From positions 138,701 to 202,700 of the forward strand of contig CAYPWJ010000001.1 in NCBI GenBank assembly GCA_964414415.1: 64,000 nt of DNA. Reading direction: 5' to 3'. The stretch comes from an uncultured Thermoplasmatales archaeon. GTDB taxonomy: Archaea > Thermoplasmatota > E2 > UBA202 > DSCA01. A model generated the notes under the pieces. The model saw only the letters and a list, made by a program, of their open reading frames with translations, made no database searches and was not told the DNA's origin. Positions 2,955-63,625 of this stretch are shown piece by piece (position 1 is the first letter of the stretch; every line of letters begins with the position of its first letter). A program made the position numbers and the translations under genes.

Positions 2955-3017
2955 ACCATGCATCTGCAATAATCCTTTTAAAAAACCGTCTGTTTGTCTA
3001 CAATGGGAGGTGAAAAA

Positions 3018-3116
3018 ATGGAAATCGCACGGTCGGAGGAGAGCGCGGGGACCTTTCTGCTCATCTTCGCTGTTCTCCTGACTATTATCACGCTGGCCGC
3101 CGCCCTGCTGCTGTAG
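3018..3116 (+). CDS. possible 32-aa hydrophobic micropeptide (MEIARSEESAGTFLLIFAVLLTIITLAAALLL)
   Basis: Read directly from the intergenic sequence. A strong RBS-like GGGAGGTG sits 8 nt upstream of the ATG, followed by a single predicted TM helix. Not in the ORF track because it is under 60 aa. Confidence 0.25.
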   Translation: MEIARSEESAGTFLLIFAVLLTIITLAAALLL

Positions 3117-3199
3117 GCGAAGGCGACATGAAGCTAACGAGCCAGGCGGCAGATGGCTCAGCCGGCAACTATCCAGATATTCTCGGATGCATCGAGGTG

Positions 3200-3661
3200 T
3201 TACATCTCTTTGACGGCCTTCCACGTCCGCTTCCGGTAGGGCTGTACGTCGATGCCATGTTCGCGGGCGACGAGCAGCGCCGCCACCTCGGGGATGACGT
3301 GCTCCTGTTCCGCCCGCTCGCTGACCATGCGCCTCGCCTCCTCCTCGGACATCTCTCTGGCAGATAACGTCTCGCAGATCTCGGTGACCAGGTCCCGGCG
3401 TTTGGTCTGCACGATGCTGCCGTCGACTTCGAAGCCCAGCGGCACCTCGACGGCTGCAGGGTCAAACGTGGGCGTGTAGCCCGCATCGGTTTCCTCCAGC
3501 AGTCCCTGCTCGAGGCCGCGCTTGATGAACCGCTTCGCCTGTGCCGGGGTCAGCCAGCCGAGCTCGTAGGACAGCGTCATGTATATCTCGTTGTCGTCCA
3601 GGCTGTCCGTGCCGCTCCGCTGAAACAAAAACGCGATGAGTTTCCTCGCCTCCGTTGTCAT
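3200..3661 (-). CDS. conserved archaeal hypothetical protein (DUF2240-like)
   Basis: ORF 3200..3730. Internal ATG at 3661 (MTTEARKLIAFLFQ...) chosen as the start. It overlaps the upstream gene stop by 4 nt (ATGA). Confidence 0.45.
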   Translation of the reverse strand: MTTEARKLIAFLFQRSGTDSLDDNEIYMTLSYELGWLTPAQAKRFIKRGLEQGLLEETDAGYTPTFDPAAVEVPLGFEVDGSIVQTKRRDLVTEICETLSAREMSEEEARRMVSERAEQEHVIPEVAALLVAREHGIDVQPYRKRTWKAVKEM

Positions 3662-4134
3662 GCTATCCGCTCCACAAGGCCTTCGGTATCGTCCAGACGC
3701 CATGCCTCGACGGTCCACGTCTCCCGCCACGCATCGTCGACGACGAGCCCCGTCAGCCCGAATCGACGGACGCGCTGCTGCGCCTGCAGCGGCCGCTCGG
3801 AGCGCAGATAGAGGTCGCTCTCCACCATGTCGACAAGCCGACCGAGGTCGTCGTCGGATGCATCGCCGAGGGTGACTCTGGCTGCCCCGGCAACGACCAG
3901 GTCGATGACGTCCTCTACGCGCCGCGGCGCCGCGTCAAGCCACAGAAACGCCTTCCTGGATACCTTCTTGTAGACGTCGAGGTTGGCCCTGTTGCGCCGA
4001 TGGCCGTCCAGGTCGACCACGTAGAGCAGGTCATGCTCGCCGCGGAGCTCCCGCAGCGTCTCGACGGCGCTGCCATGTTCTCCTTCGAGGAGAGCCTGGC
4101 CGCGTTCGACGTACACCAGCGGTATCTGGTCCAT
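3658..4134 (-). CDS. short HisA/HisF-like (beta/alpha barrel) family protein
   Basis: MDQIPLVYVERGQ...LYVVDLDGHRRNRANLDVYKKV...AAPRRVEDVIDLVVAGAARVTLG resembles the HisA/HisF N-terminal half. Start taken at Met16 of ORF 3658..4179. Confidence 0.4.
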   Translation of the reverse strand: MDQIPLVYVERGQALLEGEHGSAVETLRELRGEHDLLYVVDLDGHRRNRANLDVYKKVSRKAFLWLDAAPRRVEDVIDLVVAGAARVTLGDASDDDLGRLVDMVESDLYLRSERPLQAQQRVRRFGLTGLVVDDAWRETWTVEAWRLDDTEGLVERIA

Positions 4135-4209
4135 CGGACGGCAAACACAGGGGACGTTAAAACGTTTTCCACCCGCCAACCTTTAAATGAGGCAGGAGAT
4201 GTAGACCTC

Positions 4210-5235
4210 GTGCAGAGGACGGCTATCTCGGTAGCGCGGCGCAAGGCGCAGGAAGCGCTGCAGCAGCTCATCCAGCGCGGATTGCTGGACGACAGCCGGC
4301 GCATCAGCCGCACTGAGCATGAGGTCCAGATCCCCGTCGTCACACCTCCAGATGATTTTCCCTGTGCGTTCAAGGTCGTCGAGCAGGAGGAAATCCAGCC
4401 GCGCAGATATCCAACGCCGATGGCCGAGATACACGCCCGCATTCAGCAGGAGCTGCCGGATGTTGACGTGGCAATGCTGCCCGACAGCTGGGAAAAAATC
4501 GGCGACATCCTCGTCATGTGCTTCCCCGACGGCTTCCCCGGGAAACAGCAAGCCGCCGCGGTATACGCCGCCGTGCTGGGCTGCCGCGCCGTCCTAGAAG
4601 ACATCGGCGGCATATCCGGGATCAAGCGCCAGCCGCGCGTCCAGCATCTCTGGGGCGACCACGACACCGAGACAGTCCACCGGGAAAACGGCATCGCCTT
4701 CAGGCTCGATCCACAGCGCGTGATGTTCTCGTCGGGCAACGTCGACGAGCGCATCCGAATGGCATCTGCGGCAACTGAAGGCGAGGTCGTCGTCGACCTC
4801 TTCGCCGGCATCGGCTACTTCACGCTGCCGCTGGCCGTGCATGGCAGCGCCAGGGTCTACGCCTGCGACATCAACCCAACGGCTGCCGGTTATCTCCGAG
4901 AGAGCGTCCGTCTCAACGGCGTCGAGAGCCGCGTCGACGTTTTGGAGGGTGACTGTCGCAGCGTGGCGCCGCGCGGCGTTGCGGAGCGCGTGGTCATGGG
5001 ACACCTGAAGGCAGCACCCTTTCTCCCCACGGCCATGGAGGCGCTACATCCGGCGGGCGGCATAGTGCACTACCACTGCACCTGCTCCGCCGACGATTTC
5101 CCCGATGAACCGCTGGAAGATGTGCGAAAAGCGGCACGAAACGCGGGGTGGAGCACGGAGCTTTTGCAGCCCAAGATGGTCAAGTCCTATGCGCCCGGCG
5201 TCGTCCACGGCGTCCTCGACGTCGCCGTCGAGTAA
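4210..5235 (+). CDS. trm5: tRNA (guanine37-N1)-methyltransferase Trm5 (Met-10+ like, class I SAM MTase)
   Basis: The C-terminal 250 aa align to archaeal Trm5 (VVVDLFAGIGYFTLPLAVHG...VYACDINP...GIVHYH...KSYAPGV). The 5' half of ORF 3655..5235 is antisense to two minus-strand genes. Start set at GTG 4210, preceded by AGGAGAT. The start is uncertain. Confidence 0.7.
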   Translation: MQRTAISVARRKAQEALQQLIQRGLLDDSRRISRTEHEVQIPVVTPPDDFPCAFKVVEQEEIQPRRYPTPMAEIHARIQQELPDVDVAMLPDSWEKIGDILVMCFPDGFPGKQQAAAVYAAVLGCRAVLEDIGGISGIKRQPRVQHLWGDHDTETVHRENGIAFRLDPQRVMFSSGNVDERIRMASAATEGEVVVDLFAGIGYFTLPLAVHGSARVYACDINPTAAGYLRESVRLNGVESRVDVLEGDCRSVAPRGVAERVVMGHLKAAPFLPTAMEALHPAGGIVHYHCTCSADDFPDEPLEDVRKAARNAGWSTELLQPKMVKSYAPGVVHGVLDVAVE

Positions 5236-39550: not shown

Positions 39551-40984
39551 TTACGAGATGGAGCATGCCTGCTCGGCCACCTGCCGGTATGCATCCTGGT
39601 TGTTGATGCAGCCCGGGTCGGCGGCCAGGTAGTCGCCCGTGTAGCCGTAGGCCCTGGCACGGCAGCCGCCGCAGTAGTAGCGGTACGCACAGTCGCTGCA
39701 GGCGTGCAGCTGGTCCTTGTCGCGGAGCTGCTGCAGCACCTCGTGGTGTTTCCATAGCTCCTCGAAGTCGTCCTCCCGGATGTTGCCGACCTTGAGCGGG
39801 AAGAACACGCAGGGCTGCAGGTCGCCGTTCGCCTTCATCGCCATGTAGAACCGGCCGGCGCCGCAGCCGCCGATGAACTCGGCGAGATCGGCAAGCTGCC
39901 CGCCCAATGTGGGATTATAAAAATGTGTCGGCACAGTTTTCTCGTCGGCGTCGCCCTCCTCCTGCAGGGCCACCCGTGCGAACTGTGGCGCCGTGGACAG
40001 GACGTTGATGTCCCGGTCTTTTTTGAGCTCCTGCCAAAGCATGTGCAGCATCTCCTCCCGCTGCTCGGGCGACAGATCTGTGTCGGCGATGTCGCTGCCG
40101 CGGCCGGTCGGCACGAAGTTGTAGGCCATGAACCAGTCGGCGCCGAGCCGTTCGCTGAAATCGATGATGTCGGGCAGCTGCCGATAGTTGTGGCGGGTCA
40201 CCGTCGTCGATATCTCGACGAAGAAGCCGCGGGCGACGACGTTCCTGACGCCCTGCACCGTCCGGTCGAAGGCCCCGTCGACACCGCGGAACGCGTCATG
40301 GGTCTCCGCGTCGATGCCATCCAGGCTGATTTGCAGGAAATCGACGCCGTTACGTTTCATCCGGTCGGCCATCTCCCCGGTGATGAGCGTGCCGTTGGTC
40401 GCGATGGCCACATACATCCCCGTCGCTGCGGCATGGCTGGTGAGCTCGAAGATGTCGTCGCGGACCAGCGGCTCTCCGCCGGAAAACGCGAGGATGGTAA
40501 CGCCCGCCCGGGCGAACGCGTCGATGGCTCGCTTTGCCTCCACGGTGTCGAGCTCGTCGACGCCTGCCTTGCCGGCGGTCGCGTAGCAGTGTCTGCATTG
40601 CAGGTTGCAGTCAGTGGTCACATCCCAGACGATCTGGAATGGCGCCCCGGGCGTAAACGGCCTGTTGACACCAAACGCGGCGATGCCGCGAACCGTCGAG
40701 GCAAGCCCCTTCGCCCAGTACCCATTGCTAAAGGTCTCCTTAATCTGTCGTTCATCGACATCGAATGCCGCGGCGCCACGGCGGAGCACGCCGGCGACCA
40801 CCTTCTCAGCCATCCGGCAGGCGATACAGGCGTCATCCCGCCGTCCGGTATACAGCTCAACGGCGACCTCTATCCTGTTTTTCTCGTCTTTCTCGCAGTA
40901 GGTGCTCATATGTTTGAGGAGCGTCCGGGCGGCCGGGTTGCCGATGGTGCTTTGCAGCAGCTGTATCGTCGCCTGCGTTTTCAT
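39551..40984 (-). CDS. radical SAM / SPASM-domain enzyme with ~105-aa N-terminal extension (peptide-maturase-like architecture)
   Basis: CNLQCRHCY (CxxxCxxC) begins about residue 118. C-terminal SPASM Cys clusters (CGAGRFY..QPCVFFP; CSDCAYRYYCGGCRARAY). 477 aa. Confidence 0.85.
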   Translation of the reverse strand: MKTQATIQLLQSTIGNPAARTLLKHMSTYCEKDEKNRIEVAVELYTGRRDDACIACRMAEKVVAGVLRRGAAAFDVDERQIKETFSNGYWAKGLASTVRGIAAFGVNRPFTPGAPFQIVWDVTTDCNLQCRHCYATAGKAGVDELDTVEAKRAIDAFARAGVTILAFSGGEPLVRDDIFELTSHAAATGMYVAIATNGTLITGEMADRMKRNGVDFLQISLDGIDAETHDAFRGVDGAFDRTVQGVRNVVARGFFVEISTTVTRHNYRQLPDIIDFSERLGADWFMAYNFVPTGRGSDIADTDLSPEQREEMLHMLWQELKKDRDINVLSTAPQFARVALQEEGDADEKTVPTHFYNPTLGGQLADLAEFIGGCGAGRFYMAMKANGDLQPCVFFPLKVGNIREDDFEELWKHHEVLQQLRDKDQLHACSDCAYRYYCGGCRARAYGYTGDYLAADPGCINNQDAYRQVAEQACSIS

Positions 40985-41949: not shown

Positions 41950-42147
41950 TTAGCTCCGTTTTCTTTTCGTTGTGAAGTATAACAGCATTACCCCGATAGC
42001 ACCGAATAGAGAGAGCACTTCGAAACCAGGCATTCCACCATTTCCTCCATTCCCTGTACCATCTGTGCCATCGTCTCCTCCGCCCGTGGCGTCATCATCT
42101 GTATCTTCATCACCTGCTACTAAAACACTTCTTCGTATCATACTCAT
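41950..42147 (-). CDS. minimal PGF-CTERM protein (65 aa: short N-terminal hydrophobic segment, Asp/Gly/Thr-rich linker, PGF-TM-KRKR tail)
   Basis: ...GGMPGFEVLSLFGAIGVMLLYFTTKRKRS is a canonical PGF-CTERM archaeosortase sorting signal. Start at Met32 of ORF 41950..42240. Confidence 0.5.
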   Translation of the reverse strand: MSMIRRSVLVAGDEDTDDDATGGGDDGTDGTGNGGNGGMPGFEVLSLFGAIGVMLLYFTTKRKRS

Positions 42148-42391
42148 GTTTTCCTGTCTCCTCTCCGCACAAAAGAAGTAACCGTTTATAATTTTTAGGA
42201 TTTTTGCCTCATCTCGAACCGCTTCGAAACGATTTAACAAGCCATGGCGCTGGCTTCCACCTAGTTCAACGGCAGCTGACGTTCAACTATGATACTCGGA
42301 AGGCATTGTTAATATGGAGAAGCTCTATCAGACAGCCTGTGACACAGATAGGACCAATGGCCACTAAGGCCCACACGTAATCCGTGGATAC

Positions 42392-43975
42392 CTAGTTGAT
42401 TCCGTCTTTTCTCTTCAGCCATACACCGAGGGCCAGCGCCGTCACCAGCAGTCCCGTCTGTAGACCGGGGATACCTTCCCCTCCATCGTCGTCTTCTCCT
42501 GCACGTGTTTGTTCGCTTACCACGTTTGACATGGGCGAAACATTTGGAATTTCATCTGCTGTCTTCAGAGCGAAATAGTAGGTGGTATCGGCATCCAGGT
42601 CGGACACCGTATAGGTTTCCTTGTCTCCTGGCTGTTGTGGAATCGGCTGCGTGGCTGCTGGTGTAGCATCTGCCCAGCCATCGGCAGTTATCGACGTGGT
42701 GGCGTATCGTAGATCATAGCTGCTTGCAGTCCCCATCTCCATGTTGTCTCCTGGGGCAGTCCAGGTGAGCGTGACCGAGGTATTGGTAGCCTGGGTCGCC
42801 TGAAGGTCGGTTACCTTGCTCGGCCATGTTGCATCAGCGGCTGTATCGAAGAAAATGTTTCCGTCGTCTCTGCTATCCTGCCATACAATGTATGTTTGGG
42901 TGTCAGCACCTACCGCTATAGCAGGATGGCCAGCTGCTTCAGATCCATCGTTTACCTTGAAATTTTCACCAAAAGTTGTTCCTCCATCGGTTGAATTTGC
43001 GAAATAGACTGCGTCTTCGCCGCTGGAGTCATCTTGCCAGATTACAAAGATTTTTCCGCATGGATGAACTGCTATATCGTTAGGATAGCCGCCGGATAAG
43101 GTTGACGCTGAGGTGTGGCTCACATTAACACTTGATTGGAAGGAATCTGCACCATCGGTTGAACGTGTAAATCGTGCCTTTTTCAGATCTCCTTTATCGT
43201 TCCAGTAGGACATATATACTTTATCTGTTCCATATGCTGCGATGGATGGCCCGGACATGCTGTCGCCGTCCTCAACTACAACGCTGGGTCCAAACGTCGA
43301 GGCCTGATCGGTGGATTTAACAACACGTATATTGGAATCACCGAAGCCTAAACCATTATCGTAGGCTACATAAATGGTCTCATCGGAGCCAATAGCGATC
43401 GCTGGATCGCCTGGTCTGTCTTCGGGGCTGTTCACTCTGACATCTGTTCCAAATCCTTCTCCGTTTATGGATCTATCCAGAGATAGGTTTTCCAAGTGTG
43501 AGGCTGTCCATACGATGTACACATTATCTTCATAGGTGGCGATGTCGGGGTTGTCGCCCCCATGGCTGTCGCTTATTATTGTTGGATCGCTGAAGGTGTT
43601 GCCTCCATCTGTGGATTTTGTATAATAGACGTTGCCTTTATCTGCCACTGTGACATGAATATTGTCGCTGTCATCAACTGCAATAGATGGTACATATCCA
43701 TCGCTGATGTCTATGGGGTCGCTGAAGGTTTCTCCGCCGTCGGTAGACGTAGCAAAGGTTACTGCGTTCCAGGCTAGATATATGTTATCGGAGCTATCTA
43801 GTGCTATATCTGGTTTTCTTCCATACCCTGGACTGGCATGTGTGTCTGTTCCAAAGTCTTCTGCCCTCGCGTTGTGAACGTCACCGCAGAGGGTGTACAT
43901 CACGCCGATCAGCATCACAAGAACCATCACAGTTAGTACTTGTCTCTTATGGATAACTCTTTTAATTTTTTTCAC
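42392..43975 (-). CDS. secreted BNR/Asp-box repeat (sialidase-like beta-propeller) surface protein with FN3-like domain and PGF-CTERM-like anchor
   Basis: Signal peptide. Eight or more S-x-D-x-G-x-T-F/W Asp-box repeats (STDGGETF, STDGGNTF, STDQASTF, STDGADSF, STDGGTTF). C-terminal ...GIPGLQTGLLVTALALGVWLKRKDG. Lower GC than its surroundings. Confidence 0.75.
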   Translation of the reverse strand: MKKIKRVIHKRQVLTVMVLVMLIGVMYTLCGDVHNARAEDFGTDTHASPGYGRKPDIALDSSDNIYLAWNAVTFATSTDGGETFSDPIDISDGYVPSIAVDDSDNIHVTVADKGNVYYTKSTDGGNTFSDPTIISDSHGGDNPDIATYEDNVYIVWTASHLENLSLDRSINGEGFGTDVRVNSPEDRPGDPAIAIGSDETIYVAYDNGLGFGDSNIRVVKSTDQASTFGPSVVVEDGDSMSGPSIAAYGTDKVYMSYWNDKGDLKKARFTRSTDGADSFQSSVNVSHTSASTLSGGYPNDIAVHPCGKIFVIWQDDSSGEDAVYFANSTDGGTTFGENFKVNDGSEAAGHPAIAVGADTQTYIVWQDSRDDGNIFFDTAADATWPSKVTDLQATQATNTSVTLTWTAPGDNMEMGTASSYDLRYATTSITADGWADATPAATQPIPQQPGDKETYTVSDLDADTTYYFALKTADEIPNVSPMSNVVSEQTRAGEDDDGGEGIPGLQTGLLVTALALGVWLKRKDGIN

Positions 43976-44051: not shown

Positions 44052-45041
44052 CTATCCCTCGAAAACAATCTGCTGTTTGTGCTCCAGCTGCATCGTCGGC
44101 GATGCAGCGGGCTCCTCGCGCACGGCCTCGTTGTAGGCTGCTTCCCCGCCTGCCTCCGCCAGCACTTTTTTTCCAGCCGTTATCTGCTGCTGGATGTTTG
44201 CGTTGACTTTCTCTATCGTGCCCGGCGCCACAATATGGGCGAGCTTCAGCAGCAATCCAAGGCCGTAGGGGAACGACTCACGGTGCATCAGCGACCGCGG
44301 CTTCGGGGCAAACCACACCCCGATGGAATCCTCGCCGAACGTCGTGATGGGGATACCTGCAGCGGCCTGCCGCTCAGGCGTCGGCCCGACATCCACGACC
44401 TCCCAAGAACCATCCACGTATACCTCACCCTCGCCGTGCAGCATAAAATAGCCAAGCGCGTCGTACCATTCCTCCATGACCGGGTTGACGATGAAGGTGT
44501 CGCTCCAGGCATCGATCATCTCAGGTGCATAGAGCTTGTACCGGGCCTTGATGCCGGCTGCCCGGCACAGCGCCACGAACACCGATATCTCGTGGAGGCA
44601 TGTACCCGTCCCGCGCTGCAGCGTCGCCGAGACATCGTCCATGGGCAGCATCTCCAGTGTTATCTCCCGCTTTACAAAGTCAAATGCCCGCTCGGCAAAC
44701 GTCCGATCAGGCACCTCAAAGGCGCCCAGCTCGTTGGCCATGGCCACAACCTCGGGAGTGTGCGAGTTGCAGTAGAGCGTGGGACGCAGATATCGTTCAT
44801 CGCGGTCGCAGTACGGCATATCCGCATCGTAGGCGGGAAGCTCATACCGCCGCGGCGGCCGGACGTAGCCCGGGTCGTCGTCATCGCTTTTCCTGAGGGT
44901 CCGGAGTGCCGCAAGGTTCGTGATGGCTACCTTGCCAAGCGATGACAGCCCTTTTACCATGAGCTGCAGATATGTGCTCGATGGCATGTATCCCTTCTTT
45001 TTCATCTCTGCAAGCCCTGTCATGAAGCGTCCCCTGCCCAT
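44052..45041 (-). CDS. transglutaminase-like superfamily protein (papain-fold Cys-His-Asp core)
   Basis: Core GTGTCLHEISVFVALCRAAGIKARYKLYA. Paralogous to 59331..60380. Confidence 0.7.
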   Translation of the reverse strand: MGRGRFMTGLAEMKKKGYMPSSTYLQLMVKGLSSLGKVAITNLAALRTLRKSDDDDPGYVRPPRRYELPAYDADMPYCDRDERYLRPTLYCNSHTPEVVAMANELGAFEVPDRTFAERAFDFVKREITLEMLPMDDVSATLQRGTGTCLHEISVFVALCRAAGIKARYKLYAPEMIDAWSDTFIVNPVMEEWYDALGYFMLHGEGEVYVDGSWEVVDVGPTPERQAAAGIPITTFGEDSIGVWFAPKPRSLMHRESFPYGLGLLLKLAHIVAPGTIEKVNANIQQQITAGKKVLAEAGGEAAYNEAVREEPAASPTMQLEHKQQIVFEG

Positions 45042-45353: not shown

Positions 45354-45980
45354 TCACTGCCGTCGTCTGCTGACCGATACCAGCACTGCAGCGAGACCGC
45401 CGAGCACCAGAAGCAACGTGAAGCCGGGAACACCGCCATCTCCGCCGTTTCCCCTGTTGATGTCGGGGGCATATTCCTGCGGAGCCCAGTCCTGCCAGTA
45501 TTCACCGCTTGTCTGCCGGCTGTAGCCGGACGCCGCCCAGCCTTTGAATGACACCCTGCCGTCGCTCCCCAGCAGTTCCACGCTGGCGGTAATCGTGTCA
45601 CCCGTAGCGGAGACGTTGCCGAATCGCACGTCATTGGATCCTCTGGCCATGTGGGTGCCGCTGCCGTTTACGTAGGTCATCGTGTACGTTGCATCGCTGG
45701 TGTTATATTCCGCCCAGTACCATACATCATCAGCCTCCTCGATTTCTCCCTGGACGGTCATCGTCAACATCAGCATGTCTCCGTCGACCATATACGACAG
45801 CTCCGTAATGTCGATGTTAGGCCTGTCGGTCACGGCGTGTGTCCATGCATACCCTTCCATGTTTTCGCTCCATTTCCAGTGGAGCACGTCGTCGGTGTCA
45901 TCGTCAACCGTTGCAGCATCCGCAAGACCAGCGCCGAGCAGTGCCATCACCATCAGTCCACATACAAGCATATATCTCAT
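45354..45980 (-). CDS. secreted PGF-CTERM protein
   Basis: N-terminal signal/TM (MRYMLVCGLMVMALLGAGLA) and C-terminal ...GGVPGFTLLLVLGGLAAVLVSVSRRRQ. Confidence 0.6.
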   Translation of the reverse strand: MRYMLVCGLMVMALLGAGLADAATVDDDTDDVLHWKWSENMEGYAWTHAVTDRPNIDITELSYMVDGDMLMLTMTVQGEIEEADDVWYWAEYNTSDATYTMTYVNGSGTHMARGSNDVRFGNVSATGDTITASVELLGSDGRVSFKGWAASGYSRQTSGEYWQDWAPQEYAPDINRGNGGDGGVPGFTLLLVLGGLAAVLVSVSRRRQ

Positions 45981-46021
45981 GTCATCCTCCGGAACCATAT
46001 CACAATCGGCGTATATATAGA

Positions 46022-54630: not shown

Positions 54631-54933
54631 ATGGAACGGATACAGCTGGTCATGATACTGCTCAACGTTGCAGTGCTCGCGTTCGCTGTCCTCTCGCTGT
54701 ATTACTTCGTCCGGCTGATGCGCGTCATCAAGATACGGCGCGGAACCATCCTGGCGGGCAGCGCCGTGTTTTTGTTTGTCGGCTACGTGTTCTTCATTCT
54801 CCCCTGGGTCACCATCGGGCGGAGCGTCCCCTTGATGGAGCAGCTCTCCTACGGCCTCATTTTGGTTGCGCTCGTCATCCTGCTCTACGGCGTGATGCGT
54901 ATATACCGTGACTGGCGCGAGGTCATAACATGA
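54631..54933 (+). CDS. small 3-TM membrane protein, translationally coupled to the histidine kinase
   Basis: ATGA overlap with the 54930 start. Confidence 0.45.
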   Translation: MERIQLVMILLNVAVLAFAVLSLYYFVRLMRVIKIRRGTILAGSAVFLFVGYVFFILPWVTIGRSVPLMEQLSYGLILVALVILLYGVMRIYRDWREVIT

Positions 54934-56720
54934 TGCTGCAGCAGCTGATCTCGCTGCTCAACCTGGGGTTTTCCATCGCTATCGTCGGTGTCATGGCGAG
55001 CGTCTATCTGCTATACCGCCGGCAGTACATCCTGTGGTTTACTCTCTCATTTGCCGTGGTTCCCTTCATGTTTATATACAGCCTGGTCTGGCCGCTGCCT
55101 GGGACCACGGAGATGGGCATCGTCGTGTTTCCCATCTGCGTCGTCGTCATCGAGGTCGGGTTCATCCTGGCGCAGAAGAATCTGCTGACGTCGATACGCG
55201 GCGGAGCAGGCGAGGAACACCAGATGCTGCTGCGGGACGACGTGGCGCTGCTGCGCAGCTATGAGCAGGTCGCAAACGTGTTCATCCGGAAGATTACGCC
55301 GCTCATCGGCACTGCCAGCATCGAAGAGCTGCTGGAGAGCCGCATTGACGAGCATCCCGTGCTTGCCGGCAGCTACATCGACGTTGATGAACAGTTGAGC
55401 ATCACCGCCCTCGAGGAGGCCATCGACAAGCTCGACATGGACGACCTCGGGCTTGCCTTCTATGACCTCATCGCCGGGCTCATCGACCTCTATTCCGCCT
55501 TTGTGCCGTGGAAGCAGGCCATCGACGAGTGGCGGAAGGCCGTCGCCGAGGCCATCCGGCAGAACGAGAGCCTGTTTGAATGGGCGCTCCCCATCGTCCT
55601 CTTCCGCCTTGTCCTCGAACCGGTGCTGCGACGCTGCCGCTCCGACGACATCAACGAGATCGCGATCATGCTCAACCGGAGCAAGAGCGGCATCGAGATA
55701 CAGCCGAGCGGACAGATCGACATTCGGCAGCTGTATCGGCGGCAGGCCGACGCCGACGACCCGGTCCAGTTTGGTATTGAACGGTTTCTCCACGCGCTCG
55801 ACCGGATGTATCTCATCCTGAAGCAGAGCATGGGGCCCGAGAAGGCAAATGCGATGATAACTGAGCATTTCCGGGCGATGCCCACCAACATCAAGGAGCG
55901 CCTATACGGCGAGGGGTTGGTCGAGCAGCTGCCTGAGGGCGTCCTCGAGGAGGAAAAAGTGACGCTGCTGAGCCGGGAGCGTCTCATCGAGGAGCTGCTG
56001 AACCGGCGGAAAAAGCTGGAGAAAGCATATCGGGAGCTCGCCGAGGCGGAACTCGGTAAGATGAAGACCACGTTTCTCGACGTCATCGCCCACGAGCTTC
56101 GCACCCCGCTGACCTCAATCAAGACCTACGTCGATCTCCTCAGGCAGGAAAAACTGGGCGAGCTATCGGAGATGCAGGAGGAAAAACTGGACATCATGGC
56201 GCAGAACGTGGATCGCCTGACCGCGCTCATCAATGACATGCTGGAGATTCCGTCTATCGACGTCCGTGAACTCGAGCTACGCAAAGAGACCTTTCTCGCT
56301 CGCGCGATGATAGCCGAGGTCGTACGGGACTGCCGGGGGATAGCGGATGAAAAAGGGCAGTCCATCAGCGTCGAGGTGCCGGAGCAGCTGGCGCTGCAGG
56401 GCGACAAAAACCTGCTTGGCAAGGCCGTCAAAAACATCCTGGTCAACGCCATCCGATACACGCCGGAAGGCGGCGATATAACGATAGCCGGTCGATTCGA
56501 AGGCGAGCAGGCGCATCTCATGGTCGCTGACACCGGCCCCGGTATCCCGGAGGACGACATCGACCGAATCTTTGATCCCTTCTACACCGGCGGTAAAGAC
56601 GGTGGCATGGGCCTCGGTCTCTCGATCGTCAAAAACATCGTCGAGGCGCACGGGGGAGATGTATGGGTGGAAAGCGAGCCAGGCGAGGGAACCGTCTTCC
56701 ATATCCGGATCGCCGGGTGA
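54930..56720 (+). CDS. sensor histidine kinase (N-terminal 4-TM domain, HisKA, HATPase_c)
   Basis: H-box VIAHELRTPLTSI and G-boxes (GGMGLGLSIVKNIVEAHGG). Confidence 0.85.
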   Translation: MMLQQLISLLNLGFSIAIVGVMASVYLLYRRQYILWFTLSFAVVPFMFIYSLVWPLPGTTEMGIVVFPICVVVIEVGFILAQKNLLTSIRGGAGEEHQMLLRDDVALLRSYEQVANVFIRKITPLIGTASIEELLESRIDEHPVLAGSYIDVDEQLSITALEEAIDKLDMDDLGLAFYDLIAGLIDLYSAFVPWKQAIDEWRKAVAEAIRQNESLFEWALPIVLFRLVLEPVLRRCRSDDINEIAIMLNRSKSGIEIQPSGQIDIRQLYRRQADADDPVQFGIERFLHALDRMYLILKQSMGPEKANAMITEHFRAMPTNIKERLYGEGLVEQLPEGVLEEEKVTLLSRERLIEELLNRRKKLEKAYRELAEAELGKMKTTFLDVIAHELRTPLTSIKTYVDLLRQEKLGELSEMQEEKLDIMAQNVDRLTALINDMLEIPSIDVRELELRKETFLARAMIAEVVRDCRGIADEKGQSISVEVPEQLALQGDKNLLGKAVKNILVNAIRYTPEGGDITIAGRFEGEQAHLMVADTGPGIPEDDIDRIFDPFYTGGKDGGMGLGLSIVKNIVEAHGGDVWVESEPGEGTVFHIRIAG

Positions 56721-56829: not shown

Positions 56830-57912
56830 ATGAACGACACGGCCAACGTCGTCTCGGAGCAGCTCACACGTATCATGTTCGTCGATGACGACCCGTCGAT
56901 TCTCGATGCCGCCAAGACAGCCATCGAGTCCTACGGCTACCAGGTGATAACCGCCGAGTCGGGCGAAGAATGTCTGGAGCGGCTCGACGAGGCGGACCTC
57001 GTCTTTCTCGACATAAAAATGCCCGGGATGGATGGCATCGAGACGCTCAAAGAGATAAAGCAGCGTGACCCGTCCATTCCCGTCATCATGATAACGGCGT
57101 ATGCGACGGTTGACAGCGCCATCGAAGCGATGAAGGAGGGTGCCTTCGACTACATCCGGAAGCCGTTCGACATGGACGAACTCGAGGGCAGCATCCTTGC
57201 CGCTATCGAGGAGATAAAGTTCGAGCGGCTGAAACAGGTGGGGCAGGAAAGCGGAGACTACCTTGAAAAATTCCGGGATCTCGCCGCGGAGGCACCCGGT
57301 GTCTACATCGGCACCGGTATCGAGCGAGTCAAGAACATGGACGTAGCGGCAATCCCGCTGGTATCCGACTGGCAGCCACGGGACCTGCAGGCGGTGCAGG
57401 ACGACGTCGAGGAGGCGCTCGACGACGAAGTGGTCCTTGCGCTGACCGACGTCGCGTATCTCCTGGAGGAACACCGCTTTGGTGACGTACGCGATTTTCT
57501 CCGGTGGCTGTACCGGCAGGCGTCGATGCACCGCGGCCGCCTCATCCTGTCGACTGATTTCAGCCAGGTTGACGACAAGCTGGCGGACGACATCAGGGAT
57601 GTCATCGCTGACATCCGGCTGAGTCTCTTCTCGGATTCTATCTCGAATTATCTGCGGCGGCGGGTCATCCAGGCGCTGTCCGACGGCGACACCTACAGCT
57701 TTACCACCATCGCGCAGCTGCTGGACATCAAGGACAATCCGAAGCTCAGCTTTCACCTCAAGAAACTGAAGGACGACGGTGTCATCAAGCAGGACGAGGA
57801 CAAGCGCTACTATCTGTCGTCGATGGGCATGGACATCGCCGAGGTCCTGAAGGGCATCCGGGAGCGACAGGTCAGCGACCAGACCGACTTCCTGTGGATG
57901 CCCCGGGAGTAG
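56830..57912 (+). CDS. response regulator: CheY-like receiver + DUF835-like middle domain + C-terminal winged helix
   Basis: Receiver Asp (LVFLDIKMPGMDG) and C-terminal wHTH (TIAQLLDIKDNPKLSFHLKKLKDDGVI). Confidence 0.8.
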   Translation: MNDTANVVSEQLTRIMFVDDDPSILDAAKTAIESYGYQVITAESGEECLERLDEADLVFLDIKMPGMDGIETLKEIKQRDPSIPVIMITAYATVDSAIEAMKEGAFDYIRKPFDMDELEGSILAAIEEIKFERLKQVGQESGDYLEKFRDLAAEAPGVYIGTGIERVKNMDVAAIPLVSDWQPRDLQAVQDDVEEALDDEVVLALTDVAYLLEEHRFGDVRDFLRWLYRQASMHRGRLILSTDFSQVDDKLADDIRDVIADIRLSLFSDSISNYLRRRVIQALSDGDTYSFTTIAQLLDIKDNPKLSFHLKKLKDDGVIKQDEDKRYYLSSMGMDIAEVLKGIRERQVSDQTDFLWMPRE

Positions 57913-57967
57913 CTAAATCGGGCTTTAACGGTGTTCAACCATGGTTTAACGAACGATTTTAAGTCCC

Positions 57968-59350
57968 GTGTCATTGTTTGTGGCCATGCAAGTGATACCT
58001 GAAACCACTGGGCGGCTGTCGAACAACCTGACAGACCGGTTTTTGGTCCCCCGCGAGCGATGGATGACCATCGACTCTATGATTTACGGCATGGACAATT
58101 ACTTTGATTACGATGCGGGGAGCGCCAGAGAGAAACGCACGACGGCTATCCGTGAGGCCTTCGAACATCATTATTCTAACAACCTGTTTTATCATCGGTA
58201 CTGCAGGGACAACGACGTCCGGCCAGATGACATCAAAACGGAGGACGATCTCACCGCTATTCCCATGGTTCCGGACAATTTTTTCAAGGATTACCCGGAG
58301 GAGAACCCGAAGAGCGTCTATGAATGGCTGTACCGTGTATCGTCGGTCAACGTAGGAGACTACGATTTTTCCGGCAGCGGCCTGCAGGATTTTCTCCGCT
58401 GGGCGGAACATCGCCTGCGGGGCATCGTGACACATTCCTCGGGCACCACGGGCAACTTCAGCATAATGTTCCGGGATCAGTTGACCACGCAACGGTTGTT
58501 CTATGCATTCGACAAGACGCTCCTCTTCTCCATCGTGCATCCCGATGACGATGCACAGTTCGTATACCCGGGTCCGATCAAAACATATCTCACCATGGGG
58601 CACTGGATATCGGAGGGCAGCCAGGTGTTCGACGACAGCCAGCGTCATTTCCTCACGGATCGGGAGCTGACCATGGACATCGTCCGGCTTATGTCCGGCC
58701 AGATACGCGGCCTCAAGGACAAGCTGAAGCTGAAGCTGCTGCAGCGGGCCATGAAAAAAGGGCAGCAGAAGCTGATACAGCTGCTGGAGAAAATGGACAA
58801 AGCGGACAAGCAGGTAATCATCATCACGTTTCCCTTCCAGCTCTACGACCTCATGGAGCTCATGCGGGAGGAGGGCGTCAGCCTCTCGCTGGGCGATCAG
58901 AACAGCATCGTCATCACCGGCGGTGGATGGAAGATCCACCAGGGAAAGAAAGTCTCACCGCAGACATTCGCTGGCATGATAGAGGAAACACTGGGTATCC
59001 CCCCGGAGCATTACAAGGACATATACGGCATGTCTGAGATGAACGCCCTGGGCATGGACTGCGAGGGACGATACAAGCACCTGCATCCCTGGCTCTATCC
59101 AATGATCCTCGACGAAGACAACCAGCCAAAGGGCTACGACCAGACGGGCCGCTTCGCGTTTCTGGATCCTGTCTCCCACAGCTATCCAGGGTTCATCATC
59201 ACCGGCGACCGGGTGAAGCTCTATGAACGCTGTCCCGCCTGCGGCCGGCCGGGCGTAGTGATGGATTCAGATATCAGTCGGATGTCCGGCGCCGAGGCGA
59301 AGGGATGCGGCAACCTGATGCGGGATTTGATTGCCGAGGAGCTGCGGTGA
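57968..59350 (+). CDS. adenylate-forming enzyme, LuxE acyl-protein synthetase / PaaK / F390-synthetase-like (ANL superfamily)
   Basis: P-loop-like THSSGTTGNF and GGGWK motif. The true start may be Met33 at 58064. Confidence 0.65.
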   Translation: MSLFVAMQVIPETTGRLSNNLTDRFLVPRERWMTIDSMIYGMDNYFDYDAGSAREKRTTAIREAFEHHYSNNLFYHRYCRDNDVRPDDIKTEDDLTAIPMVPDNFFKDYPEENPKSVYEWLYRVSSVNVGDYDFSGSGLQDFLRWAEHRLRGIVTHSSGTTGNFSIMFRDQLTTQRLFYAFDKTLLFSIVHPDDDAQFVYPGPIKTYLTMGHWISEGSQVFDDSQRHFLTDRELTMDIVRLMSGQIRGLKDKLKLKLLQRAMKKGQQKLIQLLEKMDKADKQVIIITFPFQLYDLMELMREEGVSLSLGDQNSIVITGGGWKIHQGKKVSPQTFAGMIEETLGIPPEHYKDIYGMSEMNALGMDCEGRYKHLHPWLYPMILDEDNQPKGYDQTGRFAFLDPVSHSYPGFIITGDRVKLYERCPACGRPGVVMDSDISRMSGAEAKGCGNLMRDLIAEELR

Positions 59351-60380
59351 TACCATGCTCGGGAGACTGAAGGAAGAGATGGACAAGGGGCTGTTTATTC
59401 CGCTGCCGATGCTGAGAAACCTCCTAGGCGCCGTCGGTCCACTTGCGTTTGTTCTGGCCAAGCATCCACGGGCTACCCTGGCAAATGTTCCAGTGTGGAT
59501 GAAGCGCCTTCGCCGATCACAGCCACCGTGGGCGCATCTGGACGACGAGGATACATATGACGCGCGGCAGCTGCTGTCATCAGAGGACTACGAGCGTATG
59601 CCGTCCGTCCGGACAGAGAAGTATCTGCGGCCGACACGGCTCTGCGAGAGCGATGCGCCGGAGATACGGGCGATGGCCGGGAAGCTCGGCGCAGGTGAAA
59701 AAAGCGACCTGAAGTATAGCCGGGCTGTATACGAGTTCGTGAAAAATGAGAAAAAGCTGGTGTTCAAGCCGATGCGCGGCGCCCTAGGCACCTTCTGCAG
59801 CAAGGGAGGCGTCTGTCTCGACCAGCTCTCTCTCATGACCGCGCTTTTACGGGCTGGGGGTGTATCCGCTCGGTATCGCCTGTATGCGCTCTCTCCGACT
59901 GAGCAGTTTTACGATACGGTCATCAAGGATGATCCGCTGCTCCGTGAGACGCTCGAGATGCTGGGTTTCCTTGACTCCCTCCATGGAGAGACGGAGGCGC
60001 TGGTGGACGGAAAATGGATTGCGCTGGACGCAACGTTTTCCGACGAGCTTGAGGCGGGGATGGGGCTACCCATTACATCGTTCGGCGAGGAACCCATGTG
60101 GCGGGATCGGGTCCTGACCACGGACATCAGATTTGAGGGATTCCCGATATTGTTCAGACATCTGCTTGTTCCGATCCTGTTTGCACTGCGGAGCACCGTC
60201 GACGTGGTGAACACGAAGCTCGATATGCTGCGGGCGCAGGGGATGGAGACCATCGACCGGCTGGGCCGGGATGGGTACAACGAGCAACAGTCCGGCACCC
60301 AGATTGAGCTGCCGTCGATGGAGGAAGCCGAGGCGTTCAGGAACGGAGGGAAAATGACGGTTGACGCCGAAGCCGTGTAA
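59331..60380 (+). CDS. transglutaminase-like superfamily protein (paralogue of 44052..45041)
   Basis: Core GALGTFCSKGGVCLDQLSLMTALLRAGGVSARYRLYA. 20-nt overlap with the upstream adenylating enzyme. Confidence 0.7.
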   Translation: MPRSCGDTMLGRLKEEMDKGLFIPLPMLRNLLGAVGPLAFVLAKHPRATLANVPVWMKRLRRSQPPWAHLDDEDTYDARQLLSSEDYERMPSVRTEKYLRPTRLCESDAPEIRAMAGKLGAGEKSDLKYSRAVYEFVKNEKKLVFKPMRGALGTFCSKGGVCLDQLSLMTALLRAGGVSARYRLYALSPTEQFYDTVIKDDPLLRETLEMLGFLDSLHGETEALVDGKWIALDATFSDELEAGMGLPITSFGEEPMWRDRVLTTDIRFEGFPILFRHLLVPILFALRSTVDVVNTKLDMLRAQGMETIDRLGRDGYNEQQSGTQIELPSMEEAEAFRNGGKMTVDAEAV

Positions 60381-60400: not shown

Positions 60401-60943
60401 TTACAGGAACCCTCGCTTGTCGAGCTCCTCGGTGATGACGTCCACGGCTCGCTCGACGTCCTTGCGTCGCTTGGCGCCGGTGCAGACGATTTTACCGGAG
60501 CCAAAAAACAGGAATACGACGTTTGGGTCACGGAGCCGGTACACCATACCCGGGAATATTTCGGGTTCGTATTCGATGTTTTCGAGACCGAGCGCCAGAG
60601 ACAGCTCGAGCAGATTGAGGTGCACGTGCAGGTCGACCGAGGCGACGATGTTCTGTATGTTGACCTCGGGCTTGATGACGTCGAATCCCAGGTCCTTCAT
60701 CTTGGGGTAGAGCTTGCCGACTGCCGTCTCGATGTCTTCCTTGTTGCGTGCACCGGTGCAGATGACTCTGCCGCTCTTGAACAGCAGAAACGCGATTTTC
60801 GGTTCCTTGATGTGGTAGACAAGCCCCGGAAACTGCTCGGGGTTATACTTGGTGTCGTCGAGCGCCTCGTCGATCTTGTCCAGGTCCAGTTCCTCTGCTA
60901 TCACGGTCGATGCGACCATATTCTGTATCTTAATGTCAGCCAT
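60401..60943 (-). CDS. tbp: TATA-box-binding protein
   Basis: Two TBP repeats (IQNMVAS..., IQNIVAS...) and acidic tail. Start at Met55 of ORF 60401..61105. Confidence 0.95.
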   Translation of the reverse strand: MADIKIQNMVASTVIAEELDLDKIDEALDDTKYNPEQFPGLVYHIKEPKIAFLLFKSGRVICTGARNKEDIETAVGKLYPKMKDLGFDVIKPEVNIQNIVASVDLHVHLNLLELSLALGLENIEYEPEIFPGMVYRLRDPNVVFLFFGSGKIVCTGAKRRKDVERAVDVITEELDKRGFL

Positions 60944-61029
60944 TTTTTCCACCTTTTTATACCTTTTATATGCTTTTATATATGCAACAGGGGGCACATA
61001 AACTTTTTGGCCCTCACGCTGCGAATGGA

Positions 61030-61431
61030 CTACCCTGTCGGCTTGAACTTGTATCCGTAGTGAATGGCACCCGCCTTTCCGTCCTGGTAGATGCGCCGGA
61101 AGCACGCCTCAACCTGCATGCCGATTGACACCTCGTCAGGGTCAGCATCCACGATTTGCGCCGTCAGATAGGGACCCTCATCCATCCTGATGAGAGCGAT
61201 GACATACGGTTCTTCCTTCTCGAAATGCGGCGGGGGTGCATTGATGACGGTGTAGCTCTCAACCACACCGATACCCTCGAGTTTGTAGTCCTCCATGTTG
61301 CCGACCGATGCACGTCTGCATTCAGGACACATCGACCGGGGCGGAAAGTACACCGTGCCACAGGCACCGCACTTCGTGCCGATGAGATTATATCGCTGCG
61401 GTATCTCTCTCCAATACCGTGGCACACCCAT
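61030..61431 (-). CDS. DUF35 OB-fold/zinc-ribbon protein (thiolase/HMGCS-associated scaffold)
   Basis: Zn ribbon CGACGTVYFPPRSMCPECR plus OB fold. Confidence 0.85.
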   Translation of the reverse strand: MGVPRYWREIPQRYNLIGTKCGACGTVYFPPRSMCPECRRASVGNMEDYKLEGIGVVESYTVINAPPPHFEKEEPYVIALIRMDEGPYLTAQIVDADPDEVSIGMQVEACFRRIYQDGKAGAIHYGYKFKPTG

Positions 61432-62597
61432 TATATCGCCTCCAATATGTGGATGACGGCTGTTCCGCCGGAGCCACCGACGTTATGCGTCAACCCGAGC
61501 GCTGCATCGTCAACCTGGCGTTTGTCGGCTTGGGCGCGGAGCTGCAACATCAACTCGTGTATCTGCGCGATACCGGTCGCACCGACGGGATGTCCCTTCG
61601 ACTTGAGGCCCCCTGACGTGTTCACGGGGAGCTCGCCGTCCAGCGTCGTCAGCCCATCGTCAATGGCACGGCCGCCTTCGCCCTTCTCGACGAAGCCGAG
61701 ATCCTCGATGGCCATGATCTCCGCGATGGTAAAGCAGTCATGCACCTCTGCCACGTCGACATCTGCCGGCGATACACCGGCTCGTCGGTAGGCCCGACGG
61801 GATGCCGTCATCGCTGCAGGAATGCCATCAAAGCGGCTGCGCTCGCTCAGGGAAACGCTGTCCGCAGCCGTCTCGGAGGCAGCTATCCTGACCGGCTCGT
61901 CGGTGAACTCCTTTGCCTTGTCCATCGACGAGATGACGACGGCGCCGGCACCATCGGTGATGGGGCTGCAATCCAGCAGATGCAACGGGTCGGCTACAAT
62001 GGTGGAGTTGAGCACAGCCTCCACGGATACCTCCTTCCGGTACTGCGCCTTCGGGTTCAACGTGCCGTTGTGATGGTTTTTAACCGCGACCTGCGCCAGC
62101 TGCTCCTCCGTCGTGCCATATTTATGCATGTGGTAGCGGGCCATCAGCGCGTACAGACCGGGAAACGTGACGCCGAAGAATGCCTCCCATTCCCGGTTTG
62201 CCGCCGAAGCCAGAATGTTGGTCGCCTCGGTGCCGGCGACATCGGTCATTTTTTCTGCGCCGCCGACGACGACCACGTCGTACATACCCGACGCGACAGC
62301 CAGATACCCGTTGTGGAGCGCCAGGCTGCCCGATGCACAGGCCGCTTCGACGCGCGTCGAGGGGATGTGCAGTTCGCTCAAGCCTGAAACCTCTGCGGCG
62401 AGCGAGCCGAGATGCTCCTGCCCGACGAAGCGCCCGGCAGACATGCCGCCGATGTACATCGCCTCTATGTCTTCGCCCTCGATGCCGGCATCCATGATCG
62501 CTGAGATGCCCGCCTCGGCGACAAGGTCAGCGAGCGATTGCTCCCAAAGTTCACCAAACTGGGTAAGGCCGCCACCGATAAGTGCTACGTCTCTCAT
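61431..62597 (-). CDS. acetyl-CoA C-acetyltransferase (archaeal thiolase)
   Basis: Thiolase fold. 388 aa. Coupled to the DUF35 and HMGCS genes. Confidence 0.9.
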
Positions 62598-63625
62598 GCA
62601 AACTCACCCCTATGTTTCATGTACATGCCATAGTCAAGGTATTCAGTATCCTCCAGCATCGCACGGATGTCGTTCCGCTCGTAGTCCTCAATGCCACCGG
62701 TAACAGTGATGTCGAATGAATCTGAGCCGGCACCGGAGCCATAGGAGGTCGCAAGGATGCGGTCCCCCGGCTCGGCGACGTCAAGGACGGCTGACAGCCC
62801 CAGCGGCGTCGACCCGGAATAGGTGTTGCCGATATGCGGGCACAGCAGCCCCTCCTCTATCTGCTCCTGAGAGAAACCAAGCTTGCCGGCCACCCGGGTA
62901 GGGAACTTGCCGTTCGGCTGATGGAAGACCGCGTAGTCATAGTCAGCGGGCTCGGTGCCCATCTGCTCCATGAGTCGCTCCGTCGCCGCCATCACGTGCC
63001 GGAAATAAGCCGGTTTGCCGGTAAAGCGGCCACCGTGACCGGGATAGGGCTCGCCTTCACGGCGCCAGAAGTCAGGTGTATCGGTGGTAAAGGAAAGCGT
63101 CTTGTTGACCTCGGCGATGAGGTTGTCGCAGCCAAGGATAAATGCAGCGCCGCCGGCAGCGGCTGCATATTCCAGCGCGTCTCCTGGAGCGGCCTGCGAG
63201 ACGTCGGCGCCGATGGCCATGCCGTAGGTTATCATGTCCGCCTTGGCCAGCGCCAGGCAGTTCTGCATCGCCGCCGTGCCGGCCTTGCAGGCAAACTCGT
63301 AATCAGCTGCTGTCAGATCCGGGGTAGCCTGGACCGCCTCAGCGACGATGGTGGCGGTGGGCTTGACAGCATATGGATGGGATTCAGAGCCGACGTACAG
63401 GGCACCGACATCTCGTGCGTCGATACCCGACAGCCGGACGGCCCGCCGTGCCGCCTCGACCGAGATGGTGGCGGTGTCCTCGTCGAGTGCGGGCACCGAT
63501 TTTTCGTGGACCATCAGACCGGCGGCAACCGCCGCCCCGTCTCGTCCCCACATACGAGCGATTTCACCTGTTTTTATTCTATATCTGGGAACATACGCCC
63601 CATAACCGACAATGCCAGCTTTCAT
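62594..63625 (-). CDS. hydroxymethylglutaryl-CoA synthase
   Basis: Archaeal HMGCS (thiolase-like; [17 protein letters not shown]...). 4-nt overlap with the thiolase gene. Confidence 0.9.

Follow-up and report, generated by a model that had tools for sequence, protein, structure and literature searches.

An archaeal locus at which a gene for an adenylate-forming enzyme of the LuxE type is directly followed by one for a transglutaminase-like protein raises the question of what two such enzymes might accomplish together. The two genes lie in a stretch of 64,000 nucleotides from an uncultured Thermoplasmatales archaeon (GTDB lineage Archaea; Thermoplasmatota; E2; UBA202; DSCA01), corresponding to positions 138,701 to 202,700 of the forward strand of contig CAYPWJ010000001.1 in assembly GCA_964414415.1. 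This whole stretch is hereafter the window, and its own numbering is used throughout (Table 1). A preliminary description of the window had pointed to two same-strand reading frames at this position, which are indeed present, and had suggested that they might form an acyl-transfer or isopeptide-forming module. An acyl-transfer module is in our view still the best reading of the pair, and it has been strengthened because the acyl-carrying cysteine of LuxE and its lysine and arginine are all conserved in the first protein. More specifically, we tentatively propose that the two genes make up an operon of their own and encode an acyl relay of two enzymes, in which an acyl group would pass from Cys441 of the LuxE-type enzyme to Cys154 of the transglutaminase-fold enzyme and then to an acceptor. 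Full-text searches of the literature returned no account of a LuxE or acyl-protein synthetase paired with a transglutaminase-like enzyme.

Profile comparisons support the assignment of the first gene product to the LuxE (acyl-protein synthetase) type of adenylate-forming enzymes. It matches the Pfam LuxE family PF04443 with an E-value of 8.9e-37 and 127.3 bits (gathering cutoff 24.9), the same domain is present in all of the at least 120 homologues listed, and a phmmer search against the PDB retrieves Photobacterium LuxE (7xc6_E; E 2.5e-23). The SSGTTG and GGGWK motifs, from which the preliminary description had recognized an acyl-adenylate or acyl-protein synthetase, were both found, and PF04443 places their bearer with the LuxE type. 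In contrast, the scores fall well below the cutoffs of the NCBIfam equivalog models, both that for bioluminescence LuxE (NF052244; 110.2 bits, cutoff 550) and those for PaaK and F390 synthetase (NF041878, 34.9 against 700; TIGR02155, 20.3 against 646; TIGR03335, 20.0 against 458.7), with the PaaK/F390 models aligning with the N-terminal 50-70 residues only. On these scores none of the three enzymes is an orthologue of the protein. The nearest folds to its AlphaFold2 (AF2) model (predicted local distance difference test, pLDDT, 86.9) are PaaK-type ANL enzymes (Foldseek E 1e-13, TM ~0.57), and several of its homologues carry the automatic JGI name ‘PaaK-like’.

The resemblance to LuxE extends to the residues on which the chemistry of that enzyme depends. 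Conservation was counted in 51 paired homologues from four clades, and the YGMSE motif and the TGD aspartate are as invariant (51/51) as the SSGTTG and GGGWK motifs of Table 1. In the alignment with 7xc6_E, Cys441, situated in the segment AEAKGCGNL, falls on Cys364 of LuxE, and Arg432 on Arg355; these two residues and Gly440 are present in all 51 homologues. In LuxE itself, Cys364 takes the acyl group from acyl-AMP, the K238A mutant is inactive and R355A is left at 10% activity (PMC9157457). Cryo-EM of the LuxC-LuxE complex has further established that LuxE is devoid of the C-terminal subdomain of PaaK-type ligases, and that its C-terminal motif, unresolved and flexible, must swing by more than 30 Å to reach Cys296 of LuxC (PMC9157457). 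The tail that carries Cys441 in the archaeal protein (residues 436-454) is likewise predicted to be flexible or disordered, with a pLDDT below 50 in the AF2 model. Judged by this alignment, none of the residues that LuxE needs for adenylation and self-thioesterification is missing from the first enzyme. There are also differences from LuxE. The position of Arg354, which forms a salt bridge to LuxC (PMC9157457), is occupied by Ser431, consistent with a partner other than LuxC; the N-terminal half of the archaeal protein is longer by ~80 residues; and it has an extra, virtually invariant CPxC motif ~22 residues before Cys441. This motif occurs in all four clades, is without a counterpart in the aligned segment of Photobacterium LuxE, and may serve either as a metal knuckle or in a redox partnership with Cys441.

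The second gene was correctly described at the outset as transglutaminase-like, for its product scores above threshold against Transglut_core PF01841 (33.1 bits, cutoff 23) and combines the corresponding fold with a Cys-His-Asp triad. Its AF2 model (pLDDT 87.2; predicted template modelling score, pTM, 0.87) places Cys154 at the N-terminus of a helix (154-167), His210 within a strand (206-217) and Asp225 just past another (220-224), so that a transglutaminase/papain-like core arrangement can be predicted with confidence. The top Foldseek match is 3isr, a putative transglutaminase-like (TGL) cysteine protease (E 2.5e-6), followed by 3kd4, TG2 and factor XIII, and then by TgpA, the endoisopeptidase PeiP and the arylamine N-acetyltransferase (NAT)/GdmF group, with PNGase also among the matches. 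Overall TM-scores are ~0.3 because family-specific helical extensions (~85 aa N-terminal and ~100 aa C-terminal) are without counterpart in these structures. TGL cysteine peptidases of the COG1305 type (PDB 3ISR) provide the closest solved fold and share both the core triad and a YLxPT(R)xC segment; the cysteine of the latter, C97 in YLRPTRxC, is invariant in the archaeal family, as are several Arg, Glu and Trp residues. With the protein-crosslinking transglutaminases that form Gln-Lys isopeptide bonds, the archaeal protein shares no more than fold and triad. A profile search of 1.84 billion representatives delineated the family as 65 clusters (50% identity) at E <= 1e-30, essentially all of 300-390 aa, with matches beyond this value comprising the generic core only. 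The two proteins have neither signal peptides nor clear transmembrane segments (highest 19-residue hydropathy 0.9 for the LuxE-like and 1.6 for the transglutaminase-like protein), and membrane anchoring or secretion of the latter was rejected for want of a clear transmembrane segment. A conserved hydrophobic stretch, FEGFPILFRHLLVPILFAL (60132-60188, residues 260-278; mean hydropathy 1.6, a borderline value), lies at the start of its long C-terminal helix, and the protein may associate peripherally with the membrane through it.

The two genes adjoin each other in a manner that differs from the preliminary description, which had given the first protein 460 residues and had its stop overlap the start of the second gene by 20 nt. 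The former figure depends on GTG 57968, which lies a mere ~5 nt 3' of a conserved TATA-like box; the conserved start is ATG 57986, as in an identical database protein (P0001, 454 aa) and in keeping with homologues of 441-476 aa. The overlap, in turn, is an artefact of TTG 59331, which is merely the first possible start codon of the open reading frame (ORF). Homologue starts and the conservation of the junction rule out both the GTG start and the overlap and place the second start at ATG 59355, again as in an identical database protein (P0121, 341 aa). This leaves a gap of 4 nt with the junction sequence GCGGTGATACCATG. The corresponding gap measures 0-16 nt in 43 of 47 related loci and exactly 4 nt in 21 of the 47, and a junction of the form GAGGTGA-N4-ATG is recurrent in clade A. 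Translational coupling of the second gene to the first, which had been proposed on the strength of the overlap, is itself supported, since the putative ribosome-binding site of the second gene contains the stop codon of the first; it would thus operate across a 4-nt gap with a Shine-Dalgarno-like element over the stop.

How strictly the two genes belong together became apparent when one genome of each GTDB species was scanned: 52 loci were recovered that encode a protein related to the LuxE-like one (34-85% identity). All are in Thermoplasmatota-type metagenome-assembled genomes (MAGs), the names given being Thermoplasmatales, Thermoplasmata or Thermoplasmatota. A transglutaminase-like gene is the next same-strand gene in 50 of the 50 assessable loci, the remaining 2 of the 52 ending at a contig edge, and 4 further pairs were reached from the transglutaminase side. 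Such pairing is far beyond chance; the preliminary description had set out beforehand that a pair not conserved side by side in other genomes would speak against its reading, and the check came out in favor of it. Moreover, pairwise identities in one protein correlate with those in the other (r = 0.86), and average-linkage clusters of one are identical to those of the other at both k = 4 and k = 5 (adjusted Rand index 1.0). Duplication of the pair as a whole has given rise to at least four clades in which both proteins diverge together, and a genome can have up to three pairs, as does the MAG CAZESS01 (loci L001, L043 and L055). The clades differ in the flanks of the tail cysteine (KGCGNLMR in A, KGCANLMRG in B and RGCAEEMRR in C) and in an N-terminal motif of the partner (DKGxFIP in A, EKGYFFD in B and E(K/R)GY(I/L)P in C), a pattern compatible with insulation between paralogous pairs.

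Some loci depart from the simple arrangement of one pair. Two complete pairs of different clades lie 5 kb apart on one contig in L020 (1197-3520 and 8357-10586), and in L060 a pair (533-2899) has an extra unpaired transglutaminase-like gene 1 kb downstream (4001-5023). In L050, the LuxE-like gene (2446-3753) is broken over three reading frames, being either a pseudogene or an assembly error, with the downstream transglutaminase-like gene intact.

Clustering of the neighbor ORFs over 57 fetched loci uncovered no universally linked third family, and neither LuxC or other lux-like genes nor a carrier protein, a small tag protein, an ATP-grasp enzyme or an alpha-E protein is among the conserved neighbors in these loci. 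The genes that do recur are lineage-specific and housekeeping in nature. In clade B they are RtcB, PAC2, phosphopantothenate synthetase and AspRS on the upstream side and PFK on the downstream side; parts of clade A have either Rad50/Mre11 or an ArsR-type regulator. A conserved third partner of any of the kinds named was accordingly dismissed. A role in anti-phage defense was likewise set aside, as neither the LuxE-like protein nor either of the two transglutaminase-like proteins of the window matches a PADLOC defense model at E <= 0.01.

From the above we infer a relay, together with its direction of transfer and the general nature of its acid and acceptor. The LuxE-type enzyme would adenylate a carboxylic acid with ATP and then load the acyl group on its own Cys441 in the flexible tail, as LuxE does; we propose this step because the catalytic residues are conserved. 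The acyl group would next move to Cys154 by transthioesterification, with the transglutaminase-fold protein in place of LuxC, a step suggested by the lack of LuxC and the presence of the transglutaminase-fold protein as the dedicated partner. The Cys-His-Asp enzyme would finally transfer the acyl group to a nucleophile; an amine is the likeliest, and the product would then be an amide or isopeptide. Transglutaminases as well as NAT/GdmF enzymes act via acyl-cysteine (thioester) intermediates and pass the acyl group to an amine. The first half of the proposed relay resembles LuxE-LuxC (PDB 7XC6; PF04443) in the family of the first enzyme, its adenylation motifs, the GGGWK lysine, the arginine and the tail cysteine in a (K/R)GC context. 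The logic, too, would be alike, with a self-thioesterifying synthetase delivering to the cysteine of a dedicated partner. However, that partner has a transglutaminase fold, as opposed to the aldehyde-dehydrogenase-like reductase LuxC; the host is an archaeon; and luxA, B, C and D are absent from the conserved neighborhood. The second half has its parallel in the NATs and the amide synthases of the GdmF/RifF type, which have a Cys-His-Asp triad and pass acyl groups from a thioester donor to an amine as posited here for the last step. Their donors are acetyl-CoA or carrier-protein thioesters, and their likeness to the transglutaminase-like protein is confined to a weak match in fold, with none at the sequence level. 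A wider version of this scheme is conceivable, if rather doubtful: a hitherto unrecognized archaeal acylation pathway without coenzyme A (CoA) or a carrier protein, in which the LuxE-type enzyme would be an E1-like activator and carrier, forming first an adenylate and then a thioester on its own mobile cysteine, and the transglutaminase-fold enzyme an E2/E3-like N-acyltransferase, with insulated pairs differing in acyl group or target. The acceptors in such a pathway would be protein lysines, polyamines or amine-bearing lipids.

Several observations weigh against the relay. The operon linkage, taken alone, would fit equally well a ligase whose product is undone by an accompanying hydrolase. 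The structures nearest to the second protein, 3isr and 3kd4, are annotated as putative proteases rather than transferases, and the NAT-type matches are weak (E 0.02-0.09). No fusion of the LuxE-type and transglutaminase-like proteins occurs in the best 150 of the 1.84 billion representatives, and no conserved neighbor in the 57 loci points to the substrate acid or the acceptor. Lastly, while the LuxE-like gene is never without a transglutaminase-like gene among the loci, the latter is sometimes alone. This asymmetry is to be expected if the synthetase needs an acceptor; yet the unpaired copies presumably mean that the transglutaminase-like enzyme works without an adjacent dedicated synthetase.

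These observations have to be set against three rival explanations of the pair. Many members of the transglutaminase-like superfamily are hydrolases, including amidases and proteases. The LuxE-like enzyme might ligate an activated acid, amino acid or peptide to an amine, with a transglutaminase-like peptidase or amidase removing or trimming it. The structural matches to putative TGL cysteine proteases and the strict operon linkage agree with this arrangement, and it mirrors what has been predicted for bacterial operons of ATP-grasp ligases, alpha-E proteins and TGL peptidases, in which TGL domains were predicted by the Aravind group to reverse peptide tags (Iyer et al. 2009, as cited in PMC3495828). 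These operons resemble the archaeal pair in the genetic coupling of a TGL enzyme to an ATP-dependent carboxylate activator, but differ from it in that here the activator is an adenylate-forming LuxE-type enzyme rather than an ATP-grasp ligase, and that alpha-E is lacking. ATP-grasp and alpha-E genes are moreover not found among the conserved neighbors. What also speaks against a ligase and its eraser is that the self-acylation cysteine is invariant and the flexible tail kept across the clades: a direct ligase would need neither, and in the only characterized member that tail serves hand-over to a partner protein. We consider this explanation unlikely, though not negligible.

The order of events might also be the reverse, with a transglutaminase-like amidase, deamidase or protease freeing an acid that the LuxE-like enzyme then activates for metabolism. 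SG8-52-type Thermoplasmatales, to whose MAGs the host is related, are thought to degrade detrital protein, and a salvage of this kind would suit both that lifestyle and the occurrence of amidases and proteases in the superfamily, with PNGase and a PeiP-type endoisopeptidase among the fold matches. However, both proteins are without signal peptides or clear transmembrane segments, and the acyl-Cys441 would still need an acceptor, for which no other candidate is conserved. The invariant order of the LuxE-like gene before the transglutaminase-like gene, with coupling, is compatible with salvage but lends it no support, and we regard it as distinctly improbable. Least credible of all, to the point of being barely tenable, is an ordinary stand-alone CoA ligase of the PaaK or F390-synthetase type with a functionally unrelated neighbor. 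The preliminary description had named clear orthology to such an enzyme as what would overturn its proposal. The fold nearest that of PaaK-type ligases and the ‘PaaK-like’ names of homologues would fit such an enzyme, and an N-terminal fold of the ANL superfamily is indeed held in common. Yet the equivalog scores lie far under their cutoffs, the catalytic lysine is in the LuxE-specific GGGWK loop, and a cysteine-bearing tail stands in place of the C-terminal subdomain that supplies the catalytic lysine in PaaK, with the enzyme's own cysteine, by homology to LuxE, probably replacing CoA. Scores and architecture together exclude a stand-alone PaaK or F390 synthetase, and an unrelated neighbor is further at odds with adjacency in 50 of 50 loci, co-divergence in four clades and varied genomic contexts. 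We retain the acyl relay as our tentative reading.

Table 1. Features of the gene pair, its upstream region and the unpaired paralogue, in positions of the window
Feature	Position	Strand	Remarks
Unpaired transglutaminase-fold paralogue, clade C	44052..45041		329 aa; triad Cys148, His202, Asp217 kept
Small membrane protein	54631-54933	+	
Histidine kinase	54930-56720	+	
REC-winged-helix response regulator	56830-57912	+	
Putative archaeal promoter of the pair	57945..57963	+	B recognition element (BRE)-like TTTAACGAA 57945-57953, N3, TATA-like TTTTAAG 57957-57963
LuxE-family acyl-protein synthetase-like gene	57986..59350	+	454 aa; start moved from GTG 57968 to ATG 57986
SSGTTG phosphate-binding motif of adenylate-forming enzymes, residues 151-156	58436..58453	+	Invariant 51/51; aligns with LuxE SSGTSG
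GGGWK loop; Lys316 equivalent to LuxE catalytic Lys238	58919..58933	+	By 7xc6_E alignment; invariant 51/51
CPAC motif, Cys416 and Cys419	59231..59242	+	Specific to the paired LuxE-like family; C416 51/51, C419 50/51
C-terminal acyl-carrier motif R432-x8-G-C441	59279..59308	+	Equivalents of LuxE Arg355 and acylated Cys364 (TRxxKGCxLS)
Shine-Dalgarno-like GGTGAT of the transglutaminase-like gene	59346..59351	+	Holds the LuxE-like stop TGA (59348-59350); 3 bases, then ATG
Transglutaminase-fold Cys-His-Asp enzyme gene	59355..60380	+	341 aa
Catalytic triad of the transglutaminase-like protein	Cys154 59814-59816, His210 59982-59984, Asp225 60027-60029	+	C154 51/51, H210 49/51, D225 50/51

The preliminary description had also placed the pair immediately downstream of a histidine kinase and a DUF835 response regulator, and had surmised that it is under their control. 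Both genes are present in that position, the kinase with Pfam HisKA/HATPase_c and the regulator with Response_reg and DUF7347/HTH_20 above threshold; the label DUF835 has to be abandoned, as the Pfam match is sub-threshold (18.2 against 33.1 bits). Control by the two-component system is possible in a sub-lineage but is no general property of the pair. A regulator of this family lies near 12 of ~31 clade-A loci, directly upstream in 10 of them and downstream, beside a larger kinase, in L017 and L019; in the 10 upstream cases the kinase and the small membrane protein are visible too wherever the contig reaches that far. A promoter-like element belongs to the pair itself: it is centered ~26 nt 5' of ATG 57986 in the window, and most clade-A loci have cTTTAAAGAAA-N2-3-TTATAT at the same distance, including those where kinase and regulator are absent. 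This suggests a leaderless or near-leaderless bicistronic transcript from the pair's own putative promoter, and read-through co-transcription with the regulator is no requirement. The heptamer TTTAACG occurs twice, 21 nt apart (57924-57930 and 57945-57951), 5' of the TATA-like box. Its distal copy (57924-57930, +) is conserved only in the window and in L001-L004, which carry the kinase and regulator, and is a candidate binding site of the response regulator. The 100-aa hydrophobic protein at 54631-54933 overlaps the start of the kinase gene by 4 nt, travels with kinase and regulator (families F26-F15-F8) and may be an accessory sensor subunit.

A second transglutaminase paralogue 14 kb away had likewise been reported in the preliminary description. 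The product of 44052-45041 (- strand) is a true paralogue of the pair's transglutaminase-like protein, with 35% identity over 241 aa (E 6e-41) and 37.5 bits against PF01841, but it is more than a second copy of one gene, as it belongs to a sister clade, C, which is usually LuxE-paired and is unpaired here. Those of its relatives that are 51-60% identical (L055, L056/57, L058 and L059) all have a PF04443 gene ahead of them, whereas its closest sampled orthologues (L053/54 and L061, at 78% and 61% identity) are unpaired as well. There is no second LuxE-like gene within the 64-kb window, which rules out one beside this paralogue. The unpaired copies may belong to a different functional context, in the vicinity of radical SAM/SPASM genes. 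One such gene lies near the paralogue in the window (39551-40984, - strand), and in L053 (7086-8965) and L054 (5765-7644) a TrmB-type regulator and a radical SAM/SPASM gene come immediately after the transglutaminase-like orthologue. The paralogue is also flanked by genes for surface or secreted proteins (41950-42240, 42392-43975 and 45354-45998, all on the - strand) that end in a PGF-type hydrophobic tail with basic residues. Two of these match Loki-CTERM or Heimdall-CTERM sorting-signal models near threshold, and by the features of their tails the flanking proteins are probably archaeosortase substrates.

On the other side of the pair, the convergent strand (60401-63625, -) encodes TBP and then a DUF35-type protein, acetoacetyl-CoA thiolase and HMG-CoA synthase, the last three being the archaeal mevalonate-entry trio. 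This synteny probably does not reflect a functional linkage, because it extends no further than the closest relatives (L001-L004 and L022).

In sum, the LuxE family and combinations of TGL enzymes with carboxylate activators are known, while the pairing of a LuxE-type with a transglutaminase-fold enzyme is an uncharacterized unit, strong both in its conservation and in its residue-level logic, and with a function that is entirely one that we infer. To our knowledge, LuxE is the only characterized acyl-protein synthetase, and LuxC is the only partner so far associated with the hand-over by its tail cysteine. We also know of little on the enzymes of protein and lipid acylation in archaea, which are largely without acyl carrier protein (ACP). 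The pair offers a tractable case in this regard, with two proteins without clear transmembrane segments, the defined cysteines C441 and C154, and paralogous pairs for specificity swaps. If the transglutaminase-like protein were instead an eraser, the pair would constitute a new tagging system of ligase and hydrolase, comparable to the ATP-grasp/TGL systems that have been predicted. If, on the other hand, the relay holds true, LuxE chemistry would have been rewired to a transglutaminase-fold enzyme in these archaea, and free acids could be joined in amide or isopeptide bonds by a new route that depends on neither CoA nor ACP.

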